A stretch of DNA of 57,304 nucleotides from a virus (taxonomy: Duplodnaviria; Caudoviricetes). The DNA lies in the IMG/VR virus record IMGVR_UViG_3300046001_004161, positions 1 through 57,304 of that record; one strand, written 5' to 3'. The position numbers and the translations under genes were made by a program. This document shows positions 8,881-51,492 of this stretch, in pieces. The notes under the pieces are model-generated. The model saw only the letters and a program-made list of their open reading frames with translations, was not told where the DNA came from and did not search any database. How positions within the stretch are numbered: position 1 is the first letter of the stretch; each line of letters begins with the position of its first letter.

Positions 8881-9388
8881 CGCTTTGCTCCTTCTCGTAG
8901 GCTGCGATCATAGCTTTATATACAAGCCCAATGTCTAGTGACGTGCCGCAATCAATCATTGCTTGAAGCATAATTTTTCCTTCCTCCCATTGCCTTTCAG
9001 TCGGCTCTCTCGGCACCATCACCATGTCAGCAGGGATAGGAGCGGGGTGGAGGTAGAGTTGAGCACCAAGTACCAGCCCATTCTCTCCTAGCGGTTCGTA
9101 ATTGCTAAGATACAAGTCGTCGGTTTGAAGTGTTGTGTAGTCTGATTGCTCCGTCCTTGTATCAACACAAGCCACCGGCTCCTGTTCCTTGCACAGTTCG
9201 TCACGGATGCGGGTGGCGAAGTCGGTTACAGCTACGACCTCATCCATGAAGGTTTCGATCTTTTCATCCAACCACATTATTTCGTTTAGCTTGGACTGCT
9301 TCGCCACTCTCAGCGCCATTGCTTCAAAGGTTTCCTTCTCGTTCAGGTCGTACTGGGTTTGTCCGTGCGGTAGGTCTTTCATTGTCAA
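8867..9388 (-). CDS. hypothetical protein
   Basis: QEPVA...LYLHPAP...VPREPT...YKAMIAA, typical of early phage ORFs. Confidence 0.65.
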   Translation of the reverse strand: MTMKDLPHGQTQYDLNEKETFEAMALRVAKQSKLNEIMWLDEKIETFMDEVVAVTDFATRIRDELCKEQEPVACVDTRTEQSDYTTLQTDDLYLSNYEPLGENGLVLGAQLYLHPAPIPADMVMVPREPTERQWEEGKIMLQAMIDCGTSLDIGLVYKAMIAAYEKEQSDAKS

Positions 9389-10293
9389 AACTCCTTGTAT
9401 GGGTTACCGACGTTGATAACCTTCATTCCCAGTTCCATCCAGCGGCGACACATAACAGGGCGGTCATCAACAACTGCGACCACGTTGTACTTGTGAGCAA
9501 CATGAGCCCAGAACAGTTCTTCCTTGATCTCGGCGTCCTTGCGCATATCACCTGCGGCGCGCATAAACAGCTCGTCGTAGAGGATGTTGAACTTCTTCTC
9601 CAGCCAATGTGCTGTATCGTTGCAGCACACCCCGTCGCGTCCAGACATCACGATCATCTTGTACCCTGCTCGCTTAAATCCGTTGAACATTTCTGCCACA
9701 ACAGGATCGAGATCGTCAAGGATAACCTTATCCCATTCGAACGGGCCGCGCTTTCCATTCATGTGCGCAAGTGTTCCGTCCACGTCAAAGATGACTGCGG
9801 TAGGGAGCTCGTCGTCAGGAACGTAAACCTTGCGGCCGATGTACTCGTTCCACTGCTCCATCTGCTTGAAGATGATGTCGTGTCCTACACCGTCGGCACG
9901 GCCAGCATCGCGCTTCCACGCTTCTTCAAGCGTAACAGGAAATTCCTTGATCTCGACCTCGTACTTCATCTTACGGAGGCGGTCGATCAATGCTGTTCGC
10001 GTCTTCGTAGAAAGATTGGTGTCAGCGAAAATGAGGTTGTGGCCCATCTGCGACTTGTGGTCAGCAAAGTCCCAGACGCGGTCAGTTACCTTATCCTCGT
10101 GCTTGAACTTCCACAGCTTCCACAGCTCACCAGGCTTTAACACCCGCTTATGGGTTTCCTCAAGTATCTCTCGACGGAAGTCGTCGCGGGAAACGATCGC
10201 CCACACTTCTGGCGATGACACGTGGGCGAAGTCCTTTGCCCACGTTGTCTTTCCCGAAGCCGAGACTCCGACTGTAACTATTGCCTTCTTCAT
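9385..10293 (-). CDS. pseT: polynucleotide 5'-kinase/3'-phosphatase (T4 PseT-like)
   Basis: GVSASGKTT P-loop, SRDD, HAD DVDGTLA, SGR, DDR. Confidence 0.92.
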   Translation of the reverse strand: MKKAIVTVGVSASGKTTWAKDFAHVSSPEVWAIVSRDDFRREILEETHKRVLKPGELWKLWKFKHEDKVTDRVWDFADHKSQMGHNLIFADTNLSTKTRTALIDRLRKMKYEVEIKEFPVTLEEAWKRDAGRADGVGHDIIFKQMEQWNEYIGRKVYVPDDELPTAVIFDVDGTLAHMNGKRGPFEWDKVILDDLDPVVAEMFNGFKRAGYKMIVMSGRDGVCCNDTAHWLEKKFNILYDELFMRAAGDMRKDAEIKEELFWAHVAHKYNVVAVVDDRPVMCRRWMELGMKVINVGNPYKEF

Positions 10294-29634: not shown

Positions 29635-30000
29635 CTATTTATTCTGCGAGTAAGACCTTGAAAAAAGTAAAGTCTCAATTTCAATGTGCACAGAAAGCCA
29701 ATTCTTTAAGATTCGAGCTACGTCAGGTATAAACGTTGTATCGAGTAGCATTGTGTTATACAGTTCTGCCGACATTCGTATAAAAGACGCATGAGTTTCT
29801 TTGTGTCCATCGTAGTCAGAGTATATCAGATCTTTCATCATTGACTCTTCGTGCGCAAAATGCCTCCGAATGGTGTCTAGTAGCTCTGAAATTGCTGAAA
29901 TTGACTCTGATTCAGACACTTTACCTATGTTTTCTGTAATGCTATCACACCTGCTGAATAAGTCCTTGTGTTCTTTGTCGATATCGGATAATGTGTACAT
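29635..30000 (-). CDS. hemerythrin-like protein
   Basis: IDKEH, HFAHEE, H..TH, WL..HI. Confidence 0.8.
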   Translation of the reverse strand: MYTLSDIDKEHKDLFSRCDSITENIGKVSESESISAISELLDTIRRHFAHEESMMKDLIYSDYDGHKETHASFIRMSAELYNTMLLDTTFIPDVARILKNWLSVHIEIETLLFSRSYSQNK

Positions 30001-30022
30001 AAAGCTATTTATTTGAATAGTC

Positions 30023-30052
30023 AAAAGAAAGCCCACCGAAGCGGGCTTTCCT
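30023..30052 (-). terminator. intrinsic terminator after tmRNA
   Basis: GAAAGCCCGC-TTCG-GTGGGCTTTC-TTTT. Confidence 0.85.
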
Positions 30053-38506: not shown

Positions 38507-39439
38507 TTAGGCGCTAGGAATACGAACAGTAGCGTTAATTGTTGCAGCAGTAGGTTCTAATACCCACGGAACACTGGCACCAGTTGCAAATTGCACGCCT
38601 GTTCCTTGAGTTAGTGTAGCCTTTCGAGCAGTTAGCTTAGTAACATAATACGTGCCACCTGCCGAATCGGTAGCAACAATTGCCATCTCACCAGCTACGG
38701 TCGGAACACTTGCTTTTAGTTTGCAAATTGCCGTACCGTCTTGCGTAGTAATCTTGTAACGGCTTCCACTGACTTGCTTAACTACGTCGTTGCCAGAAGT
38801 GCGGTTAGTTGCCCCAGCAGTAATACCTTGAACAACAATTGCGTTTGGGTTAGTTGTTGTCAATACTGCGGTTGCAGTTAAGGTACCTTGTGTGCCGCCG
38901 ACTAGTGTAACAGCCGGTACTGAAGTATACCCACTACCTGCGAGCACAACGTTAACAGCTGAAATTCTACCTGCCGGAGCAGTAGTGCCACCAAGTGTAA
39001 TAACTAAGTTATTGGCAGGACTTGTGCCGCCTAATGCTGTACCTAAAATCGTAATGGTTTCAGTAGGGATATAACCGGAACCGACGGAAGTTACTGCCTG
39101 AACAGCATAAACAGTCGCAGAGTGCGAAATTGTAAATACTGCACCGACGCCTGCTACGCTACCTGTAGCAACAATGCCAGGGTATTGTGCAGTACCAGCA
39201 ACCGCAGTGCCGACTGGAGCAAAAGTAGTTGTAGCTACGATTGCGCCGGTTGCGTACACCGAAAGAGTACCAGTTGCAGTAATGCCACCGACAGTAGACG
39301 GTGCTGCAAAAGTAACCGAACCTGCACCGTAACCGGACGAGTTGTTAGTACCGCCTAGAGTTACACTTCCAACGCTTTCGCCGCCGAGACCACCTACACC
39401 TGTGTTACCGAAATATTTCTTGCTTAATGGACGTCCCAT
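38507..39439 (-). CDS. probable virion structural protein (Gly/Thr/Val-rich)
   Basis: MGRPL start, GSGY repeats, strong SD, TAAATA upstream, own terminator. Confidence 0.65.
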   Translation of the reverse strand: MGRPLSKKYFGNTGVGGLGGESVGSVTLGGTNNSSGYGAGSVTFAAPSTVGGITATGTLSVYATGAIVATTTFAPVGTAVAGTAQYPGIVATGSVAGVGAVFTISHSATVYAVQAVTSVGSGYIPTETITILGTALGGTSPANNLVITLGGTTAPAGRISAVNVVLAGSGYTSVPAVTLVGGTQGTLTATAVLTTTNPNAIVVQGITAGATNRTSGNDVVKQVSGSRYKITTQDGTAICKLKASVPTVAGEMAIVATDSAGGTYYVTKLTARKATLTQGTGVQFATGASVPWVLEPTAATINATVRIPSA

Positions 39440-39551
39440 TTTGTTTCTCCTTTGTTTTGTATCTACTTCGACGTTCGAGGTCTACGCGGGGAATCCGCAT
39501 AAAGTCATACTGTCAATAGTATTTAGCCTCTAAACAAAGAATACTGCTATT

Positions 39552-39937: not shown

Positions 39938-40063
39938 CAGGATAGCGCCTTTCGGCTTTTTGACTAGTGACTGAACCAATTCGTCTACGTTTAGCAAATT
40001 GCTAACCGACGGGACTCGAACCCGCATACCCCCAGTTTATTTTTAGTTGCTGTAACTATCCTA
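39938..40063 (-). ncRNA. UAG-stem/CAGCA module RNA enclosing a circularly permuted tRNA (YrlA-like)
   Basis: TAGGATAG-TTACAGCAA, T-arm, loop-closed acceptor, D-arm, CTATCCTG. Confidence 0.75.
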
Positions 40064-40069
40064 AATTTA

Positions 40070-40672
40070 TTACTCGCCGAACTGTTCCCAGTTGTTGCTA
40101 AACTTAGCCTTCAACTTGGCAATATAGTCCTGCGTTTTGATCTTTACCATGTAGTCATCGCCCTTGGCAACAACACCTTCATCTAACTGTTGGTATCGTC
40201 CCATTCTCACATCGCGAATAAACTCTGCTGTAAGATCACCTTCGTATATCACTTCTGCGCACTCGGCCATGTCACCGAATGTTTCTAGAAATTGGCGCGG
40301 CCTCATACGACCTTGCTTATACAGAAATACATCAATTAGCTTTAGTTCTTTAGGATCGCCAAGTACATGGCCTCCTGCGAAACTCTGCGCACCAAAGTAC
40401 TCAGTGAATACTGTAATGCGCTGCGGCTGTTTGACGAGTTGTTTGACACGATATTCGATCTCTTCTGCCATCTTGTCTTTAAACAAAGGGATAGCGTCTG
40501 CGAACTGCGAATCGTTTTCGTCAAACAAATGATTACGTGTTCCGTACTTAGTCCATCCTTGCTTCGGAGAATACTCCCAGCGTAGGTTAGAACCGTCATA
40601 CTTGAAAAAGGCGATACATGATTTCCTCAGAGGAGATCTTTTGCTCCCCGGAATGCTTGGGTATTGCAACAT
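40070..40672 (-). CDS. ATP-dependent RNA ligase-like nucleotidyltransferase
   Basis: KYDGSNLR, TEYFG, LIDV, EGVVAK, VKIK. Confidence 0.8.
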   Translation of the reverse strand: MLQYPSIPGSKRSPLRKSCIAFFKYDGSNLRWEYSPKQGWTKYGTRNHLFDENDSQFADAIPLFKDKMAEEIEYRVKQLVKQPQRITVFTEYFGAQSFAGGHVLGDPKELKLIDVFLYKQGRMRPRQFLETFGDMAECAEVIYEGDLTAEFIRDVRMGRYQQLDEGVVAKGDDYMVKIKTQDYIAKLKAKFSNNWEQFGE

Positions 40673-41329: not shown

Positions 41330-41404
41330 TGGTAGTCCATGACGGATTCGAGCCGCCTTCTGTGCGATGTCGACGCACTGTTCTAACCAGTGAACTAATG
41401 GACT
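41330..41404 (-). tRNA. tRNA-Val(GAC)
   Basis: Loop TCGACAT; nt 8-10 form the endonuclease stop codon. Confidence 0.8.
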
Positions 41405-42030
41405 AATGTTCTGCGACCTTTCCTCCAACCGTCAGGAATAGGATCAATTTTTTTTATCTTCTTGCTTTCTATTTCATTCGTAATCCATATTGTTCCTGAT
41501 TGCGAATTTTTGTCACCTTGTTGATGACCAATTTCTTTGTATGTATTAATACGCTTTAATTTGGTAGACTCCGAATTCGCTTCAATTCTACCGTTTGTAT
41601 TCCAAGACAACCGTGTCTCATACGACACTTTTTCAAATCTGTTTTTGTGTATCTTGTGCCAATCTAAACTTTTCCTTGCAATTTCTGCTTTTTCTCGATC
41701 TAGATCGTTCCACCCAACTTTCCTGGTTGACAAGTTATTAGAGTTAATGTAATCGAACCCACCAAATCCACCTCGACGTAAATTATACACATCTTCTCTC
41801 AATAGAAACTCATCTGTTACCACTTCTTTTTCACGAGCGAACATAGCAGCCGAATCATCGAACTGCTCAAGTATCGTCTTCGTAAAGTTTTCGATCCCGT
41901 ACTTCTTCATTGCGGATCGAATGACTTTTCCAGAGCCCATATAACCATCGTCCATAGACTTGGTCTTATGCACTCCTACGTAAATTTTGCCATTCAGATT
42001 GTTTCTGATTTCATACAAGTAATAGAACAT
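41395..42030 (-). CDS. Seg-like GIY-YIG homing endonuclease (start MFYYLYE)
   Basis: YLYEIRNNLNGKIYVGVH...GYMGSG; SD AAGGAGG; CATAAATA upstream. Confidence 0.9.
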   Translation of the reverse strand: MFYYLYEIRNNLNGKIYVGVHKTKSMDDGYMGSGKVIRSAMKKYGIENFTKTILEQFDDSAAMFAREKEVVTDEFLLREDVYNLRRGGFGGFDYINSNNLSTRKVGWNDLDREKAEIARKSLDWHKIHKNRFEKVSYETRLSWNTNGRIEANSESTKLKRINTYKEIGHQQGDKNSQSGTIWITNEIESKKIKKIDPIPDGWRKGRRTLVH

Positions 42031-42072
42031 AATGTCCTCCTTACAAGTATTTATGCAAAATCTACTCTTGTG

Positions 42073-42154
42073 AGGAGAATAATGGACTCGAACCATTGCC
42101 CTTTCGGACAGGCCAGCTTTCGAAACTAGTTAATGCCCAGCACACCTACCTTCC
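42073..42154 (-). tRNA. tRNA-Ser(CGA), 3' end altered and no CCA
   Basis: Loop TTCGAAA, V-arm; abuts the endonuclease leader. Confidence 0.65.
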
Positions 42155-42522: not shown

Positions 42523-42598
42523 TGGTCCCTCCCGTTGGTTACGCTCCAACCTCTACGGATTTTCAGTCCGTCGCTTTCACTAGATTAGCTTGAGAGGG
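42523..42598 (-). tRNA. tRNA-Phe(GAA)
   Basis: Loop CTGAAAA; atypical T-loop. Confidence 0.8.
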
Positions 42599-44393: not shown

Positions 44394-44488
44394 TGGTAGT
44401 CCCCGAGGGTATCGAACCCTCCCGTCACCGCCTATCTAGCAGTTCTCACAAGTTTATAAAACTCGTCCGCTTCCCAGAGCTGAGGACC
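44394..44488 (-). tRNA. tRNA-Ile(TAT) with long variable arm
   Basis: Loop TTTATAA; about 26-nt V region. Confidence 0.75.
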
Positions 44489-44776: not shown

Positions 44777-44864
44777 TGGAGCGACCTGAGAGAATCGAAC
44801 TCTCATCTGGGCTTTCGCCACGCTAGTTTGGAAGACTAGTGCCCAACCATTAGGCCAAGGCCGC
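44777..44864 (-). tRNA. tRNA-Gly(TCC) with long variable arm
   Basis: Loop CTTCCAA; GGC-GAAA-GCC V-arm; U73. Confidence 0.85.
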
Positions 44865-45773: not shown

Positions 45774-45847
45774 TGGAGCCCTATGTAGGAATCGAACCCA
45801 CGTATCCTGATTACAAAACAGGCAGTCTACCATTGAAATAATAGGGC
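45774..45847 (-). tRNA. tRNA-Thr(TGT)
   Basis: Loop TTTGTAA. Confidence 0.85.
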
Positions 45848-45987: not shown

Positions 45988-46065
45988 TGGTGGGAACGAT
46001 GAGATTCGAACTCACAAGCAAAACGTTCTCAACGTTTTAGGTTTACCGATTTCCGTCACGTTCCC
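45988..46065 (-). tRNA. tRNA-Leu(GAG), carried by the inserted element
   Basis: Loop TTGAGAA; first 23 nt overlap the endonuclease C-terminus. Confidence 0.85.
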
Positions 46066-46681
46066 AATTTTCAATTCTTTTCTGTAATTCATCTAAGGAC
46101 ACAGCGCACCGTCGTCCTTTTCTTGCGTTATCTAAATGCAAAATAAACCTGCAATTGGCAGGATGCGAAATTATCTTAGGGTCAATATTATTATCATAAC
46201 CATAAATGACAGATACAACATGATCTCTTACAACTCCGGCAAAATTTGGTCTGTAGCCATTGCTATACATTCCATGTTCAACCAATAGCGAATACCCCTC
46301 AATCTTGTCAATTATGCCAGATAAGTTAAACTGGCATTGTTCTCGATAGATAATCTTCCTTAGCACTTCTTCATCTGTGGTTTTTCTTTTCCCTCGTTTT
46401 GTATCTGCATGTTTCTTAATTCGAGGATCATTTTCTTTAGTTAGCCCCTTTGCCCATGAACGGTTTGACTTAGAGAAGCCAACATGCCGCCCTTCCGCAT
46501 GGCATTTAGCTACTTGCTGGCTATTCTTTTGTTTGTTGGCCGGGCATTTAGTTGAAGAAGAACAGCACATCTTTTTCCCGGTTCGATTCTGATACTGTGC
46601 AGTTTGACCACATCCATATGAGCATAACTCGTCGGTAATTATTTGGTCTGCTGGCTTTGGCCCTCTCTTATTCATAAACAT
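46043..46681 (-). CDS. HNH-like endonuclease inserted in a tRNA
   Basis: CSYGCG; RDHVVSV...HPANCRFI...N..K; TATAAATA at 46704-46711. Confidence 0.8.
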   Translation of the reverse strand: MFMNKRGPKPADQIITDELCSYGCGQTAQYQNRTGKKMCCSSSTKCPANKQKNSQQVAKCHAEGRHVGFSKSNRSWAKGLTKENDPRIKKHADTKRGKRKTTDEEVLRKIIYREQCQFNLSGIIDKIEGYSLLVEHGMYSNGYRPNFAGVVRDHVVSVIYGYDNNIDPKIISHPANCRFILHLDNARKGRRCAVSLDELQKRIENWERDGNR

Positions 46682-47201: not shown

Positions 47202-47276
47202 TGGTGGCCTAGTTGGGAATCTGACCCACTAAACTGTCATGTAAAAACAGTATGAAAAACATTTCATGTCATGGCT
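47202..47276 (-). pseudogene. degenerate tRNA (possible TAC)
   Basis: CCA and hairpins present; poor acceptor stem and T-loop. Confidence 0.45.
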
Positions 47277-47283
47277 AATTGTT

Positions 47284-47376
47284 TGGTGGAGAAGATTGGA
47301 ATCGAACCAATTAGTTTAATTTTTGCTGAAAACATTCTAAGACAGAATGAGTGCCCCACCGTAGGGCATCTTCTCC
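47284..47376 (-). ncRNA. CCA-ended tRNA-like RNA with the UAG-stem/CAGCA module in place of the anticodon arm
   Basis: GGAGAAG/CTTCTCC-A-CCA; CATTCTG-TCT-TAGAATG-TTTTCAGCAAAAA; canonical T-arm. Confidence 0.75.
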
Positions 47377-47382
47377 GGTTAC

Positions 47383-47456
47383 TGGTGGTCCTGGATGGAA
47401 TCGAACCATCGTCTCTCGCCTATCAAGCAAGCAGTCTCCCATTGAAATACAGGACT
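47383..47456 (-). tRNA. tRNA-Ile(GAT)
   Basis: Loop TTGATAG. Confidence 0.8.
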
Positions 47457-47463
47457 AAATTTT

Positions 47464-47570
47464 TGGCTCCCCAACGTGGGATCGAACCACGGACCAAGTG
47501 ATTAACTTAAACACCCTCCTAGAAGGATGTTTCGTGTCAGTCACCTACTCTACCGCTGAGCTATTAGGGA
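47464..47570 (-). tRNA. tRNA-Asn(GTT) with 32-nt intron-like insertion (47507-47538)
   Basis: Removing the insert restores GGTGA-CTGTTAA-TCACT and a 75-nt canonical tRNA. Confidence 0.88.
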
Positions 47571-47587
47571 ACAGATACTTCTTTGTC

Positions 47588-47668
47588 TGGCTGACCGTGT
47601 AGGAATCGAACCTACCTAGTATCCGTTAACAGCGGATCGCGTATGCACCTTGCTCGCTTTTACGGTCA
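47588..47668 (-). tRNA. tRNA-Asn(GTT)
   Basis: Loop CTGTTAA, enlarged D region. Confidence 0.8.
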
Positions 47669-47675
47669 ATATGTT

Positions 47676-47810
47676 TGGTGCCGGTGGCGGGAGTCGAACC
47701 CGCAAGCCTTTGTTTCACAAAAGGTCTAACAACCGTTGAAACTCCGCCGTCTGGGACGTCACTCAGCGAGGGAGATCTTCTGTTCCCGCAGTAGCTTACT
47801 GCTTCCCGGC
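47676..47810 (-). ncRNA. 135-nt expanded tRNA-like RNA
   Basis: GCCGG/CCGGC-A-CCA, T-arm, extra hairpins, no standard anticodon arm. Confidence 0.6.
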
Positions 47811-47816
47811 ATTGTT

Positions 47817-47908
47817 TGGTGGAAGCGGTGAGATTCGAACTCACGAACCCCTTGCGGGGCCTCCAGTTTTCAAGACTGGCGCGTTCAGCCAGGCTCCGCC
47901 ACACTTCC
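47817..47908 (-). tRNA. tRNA-Ser(TGA)
   Basis: Loop CTTGAAA, V-arm. Confidence 0.9.
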
Positions 47909-48762: not shown

Positions 48763-48836
48763 TGGTCACCGGTGAAGGAATCGAACCTTCGTCTTGTGGT
48801 TCCAGGCCACCTAGTCTACCATTGATTTAACCGGAG
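48763..48836 (-). tRNA. tRNA-Pro(TGG), C33
   Basis: Loop CCTGGAA. Confidence 0.75.
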
Positions 48837-48949: not shown

Positions 48950-49034
48950 TGGTCTCTGCGGTAGGACTCGAACCTACATATGCCATTACAGCCCTGTTCC
49001 CAAAACAGGTGACCAACCTTTGGCCCACACAGAG
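48950..49034 (-). tRNA. tRNA-Pro(TGG) with long variable arm
   Basis: Loop TTTGGGA; V region GCTGTAATGGCATAT. Confidence 0.8.
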
Positions 49035-49081: not shown

Positions 49082-49158
49082 TGGTCCGAGATGAGAGATT
49101 CGAACTCCCGACATCCTGCTCCCAAAGCAGGCGGTCTACCAGGCTGACCTAATCTCGG
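49082..49158 (-). tRNA. tRNA-Pro(TGG), carried by the inserted element
   Basis: Loop TTTGGGA; nt 8-10 form the ORF stop. Confidence 0.9.
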
Positions 49159-49466
49159 ATATTTAAGTACTTCAGCAACTTTTCTAAGTTGCTGTGATTC
49201 TCTATGCCGCCTACTACCGTGTTACACCTGTTACATAGGATGCCGCGCACTTGGTTAGTTTCGTGATCGTGATCAACGAAGCCGCCCTTGTGTCCAACAA
49301 ACATCTCTAACTCGGTGTCGCACAAGCAACATTTCTTTCCCTGCGATTCAAACAGTTTAACCTGTTCAACGCGGGTCATTCCGTACCTGTGTAAGCCATC
49401 TTTACAAACCCTACAGGATTTGCCAGGTAAATCGTGTTCTGCGGAGCAATAATTACATGTCTTCAT
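49149..49466 (-). CDS. endonuclease VII-like (HNH-fold) endonuclease inserted in tRNA-Pro
   Basis: RYGMT...QGKKCCLC...VDHDHETNQVRGILCNRCN. Confidence 0.85.
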   Translation of the reverse strand: MKTCNYCSAEHDLPGKSCRVCKDGLHRYGMTRVEQVKLFESQGKKCCLCDTELEMFVGHKGGFVDHDHETNQVRGILCNRCNTVVGGIENHSNLEKLLKYLNIRD

Positions 49467-49896: not shown

Positions 49897-49972
49897 TGGA
49901 AGCGGATGATGGATTCGAACCAACGGTCTCCAGGTTATGAGCCTAGCGGGATGACCACTTCCCTAATCCGCA
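49897..49972 (-). tRNA. initiator-like tRNA-Met(CAT); 5' half encoded by the endonuclease ORF
   Basis: Loop CTCATAA, 1:72 mismatch; ORF stop TAA lies in the anticodon loop. Confidence 0.85.
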
Positions 49973-50510
49973 AATTTTGATCTAAATTGTCAATTTCTTT
50001 CTGTTTAATAATGATCAGCTTTTTATCCACTGATCCCCATTTACATCTATCTCGTTCTCTCTCATACCCTTTAACTTCAATGAGTATGTCTGAATCTATT
50101 AGGTAAAAGTCTGGAAAATATAAGTGCCATCCATTATTCCAAAAGTAACTATACGGTTTAATGTCGTTTGTCCATCTTACATTATTTTCGTTTAACCAAT
50201 TCGCTACTGATAACTCCCAACGACCTTTAACTTTTGTTAATCCAGTTGATGATTTAACCTCATATATCTTTACTCTACCAGATACATTGTTCTTAGAATA
50301 TGAATCTGGATTAGCCTCAACTATTTTCTTCATTTTTACAGAATGTGCTTTTCTCTTTTCGTCAGTCCATTGCTGCATTTTACTTATTTCACTTTGCGCT
50401 TTTCTCGCTTCATCCGTCCACTTTTTCATTTTTCTATCTGGATTCGATGAACATCGAATTTGATGATGGATGGTCGGGGTTTCTTTCTCACAAAATTTAC
50501 AAATAACCAT
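49935..50510 (-). CDS. PD-(D/E)XK (TnsA-like) endonuclease inserted in tRNA-Met
   Basis: GRWE...YFPDFYL...IEVKG; TATAAATA at 50534-50541. Confidence 0.8.
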   Translation of the reverse strand: MVICKFCEKETPTIHHQIRCSSNPDRKMKKWTDEARKAQSEISKMQQWTDEKRKAHSVKMKKIVEANPDSYSKNNVSGRVKIYEVKSSTGLTKVKGRWELSVANWLNENNVRWTNDIKPYSYFWNNGWHLYFPDFYLIDSDILIEVKGYERERDRCKWGSVDKKLIIIKQKEIDNLDQNLRIREVVIPLGS

Positions 50511-50835: not shown

Positions 50836-51492
50836 TTATTTCTTAATCTTACGTCCTGTTCTCCAGCCCTCAGGAACAAGATCGGTTTTCTTTATCTTTT
50901 TGTTCTCTGTTTCGTTTGTGATCCACATCGTTCCATAGTTGGAATTCTTTTCACCTTGCTGATGTCCGATCTCTTTGAAAGTTTGTTTTCTTTTAAGAAT
51001 AGCCTCTGGGGAGCTTGCACGTAACCGCATTTCTTTTAATCCGTCAGGCGAAAATGCTCCACGAACAACTTGGCCATTCTCATAAGCAGTTCTCAAAGAA
51101 ACACTTATTCGGTCATTCTTAATTTTCCACCATTCTTCAGATTTGTTTTTCATCGAAAGGTTGCCTAGCTTACCACCTTTACTTGGTTGATCTAAGTTAT
51201 TACGAATGATATACTCAAACCCGCCAAAGCCACCTCGACGTAAATTATACACATCTTCACGCAATAAAAACTCATCTGTCACTATTTCTTTTTCTCTTGC
51301 ATACATAGCAGCCGAATCGTCGAACTGCTCCAATATGACTTTAGTGAAATTCGCAATTCCGTACTTTGTGATAGCACTACGAATCACTTTCCCAGAGCCC
51401 ATATAACCATCATCCATTGACTTGGTTTTATGAACCCCTACGTAAATTTTGCCATTCAGATTGTTTCTGATCTCATACAAGTAATAGAACAT
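50836..51492 (-). CDS. Seg-like GIY-YIG homing endonuclease, paralog of 41395
   Basis: Near-identical N-terminal about 95 aa and C-terminal WITNE..GWR. Confidence 0.9.
   Translation of the reverse strand: MFYYLYEIRNNLNGKIYVGVHKTKSMDDGYMGSGKVIRSAITKYGIANFTKVILEQFDDSAAMYAREKEIVTDEFLLREDVYNLRRGGFGGFEYIIRNNLDQPSKGGKLGNLSMKNKSEEWWKIKNDRISVSLRTAYENGQVVRGAFSPDGLKEMRLRASSPEAILKRKQTFKEIGHQQGEKNSNYGTMWITNETENKKIKKTDLVPEGWRTGRKIKK

Follow-up and report, generated by a model that had tools for sequence, protein, structure and literature searches.

A hairpin insert beside the wobble base of a huge-phage tRNA-Asn gene: a possible protein-spliced mini-intron

To our knowledge, the only tRNA introns recognised in bacteria and in bacterial viruses are group I ribozymes, which splice themselves, and enzyme-driven tRNA splicing is regarded as an archaeal and eukaryotic trait. 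Group I introns have a conserved core (P3–P9), are usually longer than 200 nt and have a U before the 5′ splice site and a terminal intron G. The tRNA introns of archaea and eukaryotes are removed by an EndA/Sen endonuclease and a ligase; in the fungal and plant route the ends are healed by a kinase/phosphatase. Phage T4 infection offers a related reaction, the repair of a broken anticodon loop, in which the cut made by PrrC is healed by PseT/Pnkp and sealed by Rnl1. In collaborative homing, found in T4-like phages, an intron is accompanied by an adjacent free-standing homing endonuclease; the known cases are self-splicing group I introns. For the Lak megaphages, tRNAs with conserved introns of unexplained nature have been reported, in a passage that describes phage tRNA introns as previously unreported (Devoto et al. 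2019, PMC6784885). Our full-text literature search returned no hairpin mini-introns in phage tRNAs, and no splicing of them, besides the Lak report. Here we analyse a tRNA-Asn(GUU) gene that is interrupted by a 32-nt hairpin and lies in the IMG/VR virus record IMGVR_UViG_3300046001_004161 (Duplodnaviria; Caudoviricetes). The whole 57,304-base stretch is referred to as the window; its CheckV completeness is 11%, and it is thus a fragment of a huge lake phage. We read the insert, with a probability of roughly 45%, as a protein-spliced mini-intron at the wobble position that is sealed by the phage's own repair enzymes. Small, protein-dependent tRNA introns of this kind have not been described from bacteria or from phages.

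The exons together form a canonical tRNA-Asn, with acceptor stem UCCCUAA/UUGGGGA, D arm GCUC-AGCGGUA-GAGU, anticodon stem GGUGA/UCACU, T arm CGUGG-UUCGAUC-CCACG, G73 and an encoded CCA. The anticodon loop CU/GUUAA is split at the slash by GACACG-AAACAUCCUU-CUAG-GAGGGUGUUU-AA. The Rfam tRNA model matches 47467–47570 end to end (model positions 1–71; 48.6 bits, E 5.9e-8) and leaves a single block of 34 nt within the anticodon loop unaligned. ARAGORN misses the gene at its default settings; with introns allowed it reports tRNA-Asn(gtt) of 75 bases with a 32-nt intron, ‘gactg-Intron-ttaat’. These results bear out the description given in an earlier note, made from the letters of the window alone, of a canonical tRNA-Asn with a 32-nt hairpin insert. 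The 3′ exon also matches annotated cyanophage tRNA-Asn genes. The GenBank phage collection holds no close DNA-level relative of the window; the 3′ part of the gene is matched exactly in four viral contigs, each of which has an uninterrupted 75-nt tRNA-Asn. Because these intronless homologues align to the window exons, the borders of the insert are exact up to one repeated G, which places it at 33/34 or 34/35, the same ambiguity (after U33 or after G34) that the earlier note had recognised. The intronless genes of L007 and L008 match the window exons at 73 of 75 positions, and the two positions that differ pair with each other, a compensatory change (G28:C42 versus A28:U42). A record from a DNA sequencing run of another study (X10, record 2) covers 47459–47845, including the insert, with 0 differing letters; the insert is therefore real DNA and not an assembly artefact.

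A metagenome scan for the window exons separated by any 20–50-nt filler matched a single contig, L018. Its tRNA-Asn (1987–2097; 46.2 bits) carries a 36-nt insert at the same site. The insert is thus kept in one of five relatives and absent from the other four, so that the refuting condition of the earlier note, an insert not conserved in relatives, has a divided outcome. The first 10 bases of the two inserts (GACACGAAAC) and the last six (GUUUAA) are identical, as are exon positions 1–48, making 64 identical positions. The 20-nt distal stem differs by six substitutions and a 4-nt indel. Both hairpins are nevertheless fully paired, the window's with 10 bp and a CUAG loop, that of L018 with 12 bp and a UUCG loop. 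When the stems are aligned from their base, the six comparable distal pairs comprise two double changes and four one-sided changes that preserve pairing, with no breaks. The exons differ at nine positions; four compensatory pairs (7:66, 49:65, 51:63 and 52:62), each changed on both sides, account for all but one of these, and the last turns a G-C into a G-U, so that no pairing is broken overall. No non-standard pair was flagged in the tRNA of either carrier.

The wobble pairs are informative about the strand on which the hairpin matters. All four in the hairpins of the window and L018 are G-U on the tRNA strand, as is the single wobble pair of an unrelated insert in a tRNA-Lys of another phage, G007, described below; their equivalents on the opposite strand would be A-C mismatches. 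This orientation points to selection acting on RNA rather than on a DNA palindrome. The re-paired stem, the conserved flanks, the compensatory exon changes and the wobble orientation together argue for selection on the RNA hairpin, on its base and on the tRNA body; a scar or a neutral pseudogene would be expected to look different. The scar of a deleted endonuclease insert, one of the three readings offered by the earlier note, is disfavoured because nothing would oblige a scar to maintain a fully paired stem across six substitutions and an indel of 4 nt when the adjacent 64 positions are unchanged.

The extended anticodon arm of the precursor is predicted to fold at −18.5 kcal/mol, with a z score of −3.8 (−5.5 in L018) and one of 200 shuffles equalling it. 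Above the anticodon stem of the window precursor sits a 1×1 loop, C32 opposite A38, followed by a 4-bp helix in which U33 and the insert bases G-A-C pair with A37-U36-U35-G34; the anticodon is thereby masked. Beyond this helix lies a 3×2 internal loop, ACG opposite AA, and then the hairpin. The hairpin base common to both carriers consists of the ACG/AA internal loop and AAAC/GUUU. The hairpin occurs once in the 57-kb window at up to three mismatches, as does the flank pattern, in a count that covers about 11% of the genome; a single copy in this portion gives no sign of a dispersed palindromic repeat of the REP (repetitive extragenic palindromic) or MITE (miniature inverted-repeat transposable element) kind, which would have many copies per genome.

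A scan of viral sequences that allowed any anticodon stem located a second, independent case in G007, a complete 340-kb phage. Its tRNA-Lys(UUU) (L023 305–410; G007:C1:181704–181809; 62.2 bits) holds a 30-nt hairpin insert which, when aligned with the tRNA-Lys annotated in Stenotrophomonas phage RAS14, lies unambiguously between U34 and U35. A consensus sigma-70 promoter of its own, TTGACA-17-TATAAT, stands directly upstream. The insert has no sequence likeness to that of the window but is built alike: the junction is a short helix, and a small internal loop separates it from a hairpin of 10 bp. One pairing rule applies to both inserts, with U35 as the partner of intron base 1 and the final intron base as the partner of intron base 2. 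Since this shared rule holds for the window insert in the 34/35 register, we prefer that register. G007 also has an intact tRNA-Lys, as well as a T4 Rnl1-type ligase (PF09511, 70.4 bits); the window's kinase-phosphatase finds only a weak kinase-domain match there (E 5.4e-4). With L018 and G007, the search for similar inserts in phage tRNAs proposed by the earlier note has yielded one insert at the same site of a tRNA-Asn and one in a tRNA-Lys, which shows, at the level of gene sequence, that hairpin inserts in phage tRNAs recur. We also note a 123-nt tRNA in G007 (L024 836–958) with about 52 nt inserted in the anticodon region, and a 115-nt tRNA in G006 (L019 6079–6193) with about 38 nt inserted there. 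The 31-nt ‘introns’ that ARAGORN reports in L031 and L033 have mismatched stems; they are doubtful and were not used.

The window insert fits neither the group I and II introns nor those of the bulge-helix-bulge kind. At 32 nt it is far below the size of a group I or II catalytic core, and Rfam over 47270–47680 (E ≤ 1) returned only tRNA-clan and weak unrelated matches, with no intron family and no small self-cleaving ribozyme (hammerhead, twister, pistol, hatchet or HDV-like); the earlier note's judgement that the insert is too short for such introns is upheld. The group I splice-site rule fails as well, as the after-U33 register ends in A and the after-G34 register has a G before the 5′ site. 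A bulge-helix-bulge (BHB) consists of two 3-nt bulges that hold the splice sites, a 4-bp helix between them and flanking helices. We enumerated both registers and all bulge shifts and none fits. The best attempts either form all the central pairs (4/4) but only 1/3 of the flanking pairs on each side, or reach no more than 3/4 of the central pairs, and the minimum free energy fold has its 1×1 and 3×2 internal loops in place of the bulges. The earlier note had seen no clear BHB, and indeed none can be constructed in either register.

Other processing routes fared no better. RNase III makes staggered cuts in a long helix and leaves 2-nt 3′ overhangs; here, with the borders set by the intronless homologues, the overhang on the tRNA body would be a 5′ one, 1 nt long for 34/35 or 3 nt long for 33/34, and the window and L018 differ by 2 bp in how far the cuts would lie from the loop. 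A kink-turn at the ACG/AA loop was rejected by hand, as tandem G-A pairs and a 3-nt bulge cannot both be placed. By eye the two junctions share no cleavage motif, MazF-type ACA and RNase E-like sites included. The RegB motif GGAG occurs in the window stem and not in that of L018.

A hairpin of 32 nt is incapable of self-splicing. If the tRNA is functional, the phage-infected bacterium must possess proteins that cut the precursor and rejoin its ends. The pathway we favour would begin with transcription of the interrupted gene together with its tRNA array. The insert would fold back, with its first bases on the anticodon and the rest forming a 10–12-bp hairpin on the conserved base. An endonuclease would then cut both junctions beside the wobble base, most simply at 34/35, and the exon ends, healed if needed by the phage kinase-phosphatase, would be joined by a minimal RNA ligase. 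The chemistry would be that of T4 repair of anticodon-loop breaks, and 33/34 or 34/35 is the position at which T4-type repair enzymes seal tRNA. By analogy, the pairing of the first insert bases with the anticodon would correspond to the intron–anticodon helices of spliced pre-tRNAs. In the DNA itself, the insert probably also disrupts a site that a homing endonuclease directed at tRNA genes would recognise; this would explain its persistence.

The window encodes candidates for the two final steps (Table 1). The first is a polynucleotide kinase-phosphatase (PNKP), whose residues 1–298 of 302 match PHROG 505 ‘polynucleotide kinase’ at 9.7e-84; together with its Pfam phosphatase and kinase domains, this substantiates the PseT-like enzyme named in the earlier note. 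The second is a putative ligase, encoded inside the array between tRNA-Leu and tRNA-Cys. It matches the RNA-ligase PHROGs 562 and 548 (E 5e-7 and 1.5e-6), and its AlphaFold2 (AF2) model has a mean predicted local distance difference test score (pLDDT) of 89. The top Foldseek matches are Trypanosoma brucei REL1, a Naegleria RNA ligase and T4 Rnl1/Rnl2 (E 3e-7 to 3e-5), with a template modelling (TM) score of 0.65 on the query at E 3e-7. Its K24-x-D26-G27 is invariant in 26 sequences. A sequence search of the PDB gave nothing meaningful (best E 0.55). The RNA ligase claimed by the earlier note thus survives in a weaker form: the fold, the KxDG motif and the PHROG matches are those of an RNA ligase, but the protein is a stand-alone nucleotidyltransferase domain of 200 aa. 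At least 434 proteins about 199 aa long, nearly all of them without a name, make up the family; they occur in huge phages and often near tRNA clusters. In three GenBank huge-phage loci, two homologues lie 2–3 kb from tRNA clusters and one lies far away; the five phages G007, G006, G005, G002 and G001 have none. For the cutting step, a conceivable candidate is a staphylococcal-nuclease-like protein encoded 2 kb from the array. Nucleases of this class leave 3′-phosphate and 5′-OH ends, which PNKP could heal.

We looked for spliced RNA in sequencing data. Of 23 runs listed, 20 contain at least part of the stretch and four of those are recorded as RNA; two RNA and two DNA runs were compared. None of the RNA contigs spans the insert, which is neutral as to splicing. 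A joint that skips 32 nt (47505→47538, with one ambiguous letter) is present in the RNA runs X15 and X16. It is also present in the DNA run X13, its sides are only 24–26 nt long with 0–4 differing letters in the listed pieces, and its flanks are unlike those of the window. For these reasons we read it as the intronless tRNA-Asn genes of other phages and rejected it as evidence of splicing.

The loss of this joint is one of several points that weigh against a spliced intron. The ligase matches no Pfam ligase model and lacks the C-terminal domain of T4 Rnl1. The 50 window open reading frames (ORFs) scanned, from about 11% of the genome, include no tRNA-splicing endonuclease, RNase III or RtcB (Pfam, E ≤ 0.01). 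The insert family yielded only two members in eight viral scans, one metagenome scan and one genome scan: viral-contig scans with exon-plus-gap, flank-plus-gap and second-tRNA-Asn patterns gave 0 matches each, the genome-contig scan gave two chance matches outside any tRNA, and the flank pattern across 33 retrieved loci added only chance matches. The identical exon positions 1–48 next to a diverged T arm could be a co-conversion tract, and the exon covariation may predate the insert. The interrupted gene may also be dispensable, given a second tRNA-Asn that lies 17 nt upstream. This second gene has an atypical D arm, with a 3-bp stem, a long loop and a 4-nt connector, and is 100% identical in L018 (1396–1476), including about 10 nt of flank. 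It is identical again in contigs of the RNA libraries X15 and X16, with different flanks, and is possibly a discrete, mobile module. Both carriers of the insert have it; the four intronless relatives do not, in the regions fetched, which hold 22, 4, 22 and 9 tRNAs with one Asn gene each.

Among the three readings of the earlier note the protein-spliced mini-intron still fits best. The re-paired insert at the same site in L018, the intact exons and the PNKP and ligase speak for it, and the fact that neither splicing nor a cutting enzyme was seen speaks against it. The alternatives are best weighed against the same observations. The gene may simply be disabled: the insert would destroy a homing-endonuclease site, the tRNA would not work and the odd second tRNA-Asn would do the decoding. 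We consider this unlikely, although the shared second gene is just what it would predict, no excision route is known and endonuclease genes abound nearby. The window array is full of them (Table 1), and in L018 a 147-aa HNH endonuclease ORF (1533–1976) lies between the two tRNA-Asn genes. That such tRNA-cluster homing endonucleases recognise conserved tRNA motifs is described for T4 SegB (PMC2330249). The pattern also fits collaborative homing, in which the insert would protect the genome from the neighbouring endonuclease. A disabled gene should decay, yet 64 positions are identical while the changed distal stem stays paired, the wobble pairs are all oriented for the RNA strand and the exon changes all keep pairing. 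Furthermore, a tblastn search of the window with the HNH protein of L018 gave no match at E ≤ 0.01. In sum, the conservation pattern favours rescue by splicing, and the spare tRNA-Asn favours dispensability. We note in passing that L018 has another HNH ORF (231–806), and that both lie within a 2.4-kb stretch of tRNA genes.

Rather improbable, in our view, is a function of the unspliced RNA. A tRNA-shaped molecule with a masked anticodon might be a decoy for a host anticodon nuclease that attacks tRNA-Asn, or a scaffold for the hairpin. The sequestration of the anticodon in the 4-bp helix would suit this, as would conservation of the tRNA body and hairpin base and the lack of any sign of an excision enzyme. 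There would, however, be no reason to keep the CU/GUUAA loop bases, the G73 and the CCA of a decoding tRNA-Asn. The hairpin sequence is not conserved, which leaves no specific target, and no partner is known.

Splicing might instead be initiated by a defence enzyme of the host, as in the second reading of the earlier note. The precursor would stay inert until an anticodon nuclease of the kind that cuts beside the wobble base attacked tRNA-Asn; this enzyme would also cut the precursor at both junctions, and PNKP and ligase would make fresh tRNA-Asn. The insert does sit where the known anticodon nucleases PrrC, RloC and colicin E5 cleave, and both repair enzymes are present. The junctions have no common sequence, however, being UG/AC and AG/UU in the window (34/35 register) and UU/AU and UA/UU in the G007 tRNA-Lys. 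Both lie in or beside a helix rather than in an open loop, and no nuclease is known to cut the two; we regard this route as very unlikely. That the hairpin is a transcription terminator or a processing signal, placed by chance inside a tRNA gene, is hardly credible, for although a simple scan flags 47526–47514 as terminator-like and degenerate copies of the hairpin in viral contigs are terminators (9/9 loci with A-tract, stem and T-run, 0/9 in a tRNA), the scan finds three such sites against 2.1 in shuffles, the tail UGUUUAAGUU is a poor U-tract and nothing would require a terminator to stand precisely at the wobble base of a perfect tRNA in two phages.

The interrupted gene belongs to a minus-strand tRNA array that spans about 39.8 to 53.3 kb of the window. 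ARAGORN counts 46 tRNA genes in the window by default and 48 with introns allowed; Rfam adds three (42526–42598, 45777–45847 and 48766–48836). An intron-mode ‘tRNA-Pro(agg)’ with a 109-nt intron at 40001–40193 overlaps the ligase ORF; it is doubtful and was not used. Features with their coordinates are collected in Table 1.

Table 1. Positions of the interrupted tRNA-Asn gene, its parts and other genes of the window considered in the text
Feature	Coordinates	Strand	Evidence
Interrupted tRNA-Asn(GUU) gene, 75 nt of exons + 32-nt insert, CCA encoded	47464..47570	-	Rfam RF00005; ARAGORN with introns allowed
5′ exon, nt 1–33 (register after U33)	47539..47570	-	Alignment to intronless L005–L008 genes
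32-nt insert (register after U33)	47507..47538	-	Alignment gap; ARAGORN intron; 47505→47538 joint
32-nt insert (register after G34)	47506–47537	-	
10-bp hairpin AAACAUCCUU-CUAG-GAGGGUGUUU, two U-G wobbles	47509..47532	-	Folds
3′ exon, G34 to CCA	47464..47506	-	Folds
Second tRNA-Asn(GUU), 81 nt, G73 + CCA	47588..47668	-	ARAGORN; Rfam 29.3 bits against a 29-bit cut-off
Polynucleotide kinase-phosphatase, T4 PseT type	9385..10293	-	Pfam HAD_PNKP 1.8e-42 and AAA_33 2.7e-15
Putative minimal RNA ligase, 200 aa, nucleotidyltransferase domain only, KYDG motif	40070..40672	-	PHROG, AF2, Foldseek
Staphylococcal-nuclease-like protein, 137 aa	37526..37939	-	Pfam SNase 9.3e-10
GIY-YIG endonuclease genes between array tRNAs	41395–42096; 50836–51492		
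EndoVII-like gene between array tRNAs	49149–49466		
PHROG ‘endonuclease’ gene between array tRNAs	49935–50510		
Zinc-finger/HNH-like 212-aa ORF between array tRNAs	46043–46681		

Several other tRNA genes of the array are unusually long. Long variable arms are normally confined to Leu, Ser and Tyr tRNAs; here hairpin-like long variable arms are seen in a 95-nt tRNA-Ile(UAU) (44394–44488), an 88-nt tRNA-Gly(UCC) (44777–44864) and an 85-nt tRNA-Pro(UGG) (48950–49034), all on the minus strand, with Gly and Pro copies of normal length nearby. A 93-nt tRNA-like gene (47284–47376, minus strand), is called tRNA-Gln(CUG) by ARAGORN; its anticodon stem is weak, it includes a long extra region rich in A and U, and it ends in ACCA. 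Its Rfam scores are weak and only tmRNA- and tRNA-Sec-like. Outside the array, a match to the Rfam ‘freshwater-2’ RNA motif (39437–39523, minus strand; 47.6 bits, slightly below the 49.9-bit cut-off) lies directly upstream of a Gly/Thr/Ala-rich 310-aa ORF (38507–39439). The window also carries auxiliary genes unusual for a phage (15203–17705, 24843–25871, 31913–36385, 45378–45737 and 48359–48769). They include NAMPT and NMNAT-Nudix for nicotinamide adenine dinucleotide (NAD) salvage, an EAL domain protein, a B12-radical SAM protein, NifU, parts of a TctA/TctC transporter, an AdoMet decarboxylase and two hemerythrins (the second at 29635–30036).

The window, L018 and G007 together invite a broader proposal, which we hold only tentatively. 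Huge phages may have a tRNA splicing system of their own, acting on hairpin introns of about 30 nt at the wobble position (34/35). These would be recognised by geometry (base 1 with N35, base 2 with the last base), cut by a nuclease, sealed by PNKP and the ligase of about 200 aa, and kept or spread as a shield against homing endonucleases. It is a similarly guarded suggestion that such a system would be a third route beside self-splicing group I and BHB introns. Were it true, the widespread phage PNKP and RNA ligase genes would gain a role beyond repair of defence damage, the ‘enigmatic’ megaphage introns would be explained and a new endonuclease would be exposed. Substrates for biochemistry are provided by two natural variants that share a base but differ in their stems, and by the unrelated tRNA-Lys insert with the same junction geometry. 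If instead the gene is dead, it is an example of how conflict with homing endonucleases disables and replaces tRNA genes in phage arrays.

The comparison with described systems is closest for the Lak introns. These too lie in tRNA genes of huge phages, need intron-aware prediction and have no assigned class or mechanism in the passages concerned (PMC6784885). They are present in some genomes and exactly absent from others (the same passages of PMC6784885), and the window insert is likewise found in one homologue and absent from the four intronless ones. One Lak intron is said there to hold a possible tRNA and is thus larger than the window insert (PMC6784885). The Lak passages describe no hairpin class, no wobble-position rule and no link to a ligase or PNKP (PMC6784885). 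Like the tRNA introns of archaea and eukaryotes, the window insert is tens of nucleotides long, is not self-splicing and pairs with the anticodon. It differs from BHB introns in lacking the 3-4-3 bulge-helix-bulge and in its site, 33/34 or 34/35 rather than 37/38; cuts in the window precursor would give the tRNA body a protruding 5′ end, the opposite geometry, and the setting is a bacterial virus. With group I tRNA introns it shares the anticodon loop of a bacterial-type tRNA and the frequent company of homing endonucleases; its 32 nt, the lack of an Rfam intron match and the splice-site rule, which fails at one end in either register, set it apart. T4 repair acts at the same tRNA position, beside the wobble base, with phage-encoded enzymes that have a PNKP and a putative RNA ligase as counterparts in the window, where the ligase gene itself stands among the tRNA genes. 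T4, however, mends a single break in a host tRNA-Lys, whereas here two cuts would remove 32 nt from a phage tRNA, and the window ligase is a 200-aa core without the extra domain of Rnl1. Finally, the L018 endonuclease gene beside the interrupted gene recalls collaborative homing, as does the position of the insert in a strongly conserved stretch, which would be a suitable target for a nuclease; the introns known from collaborative homing splice themselves, unlike the window insert.

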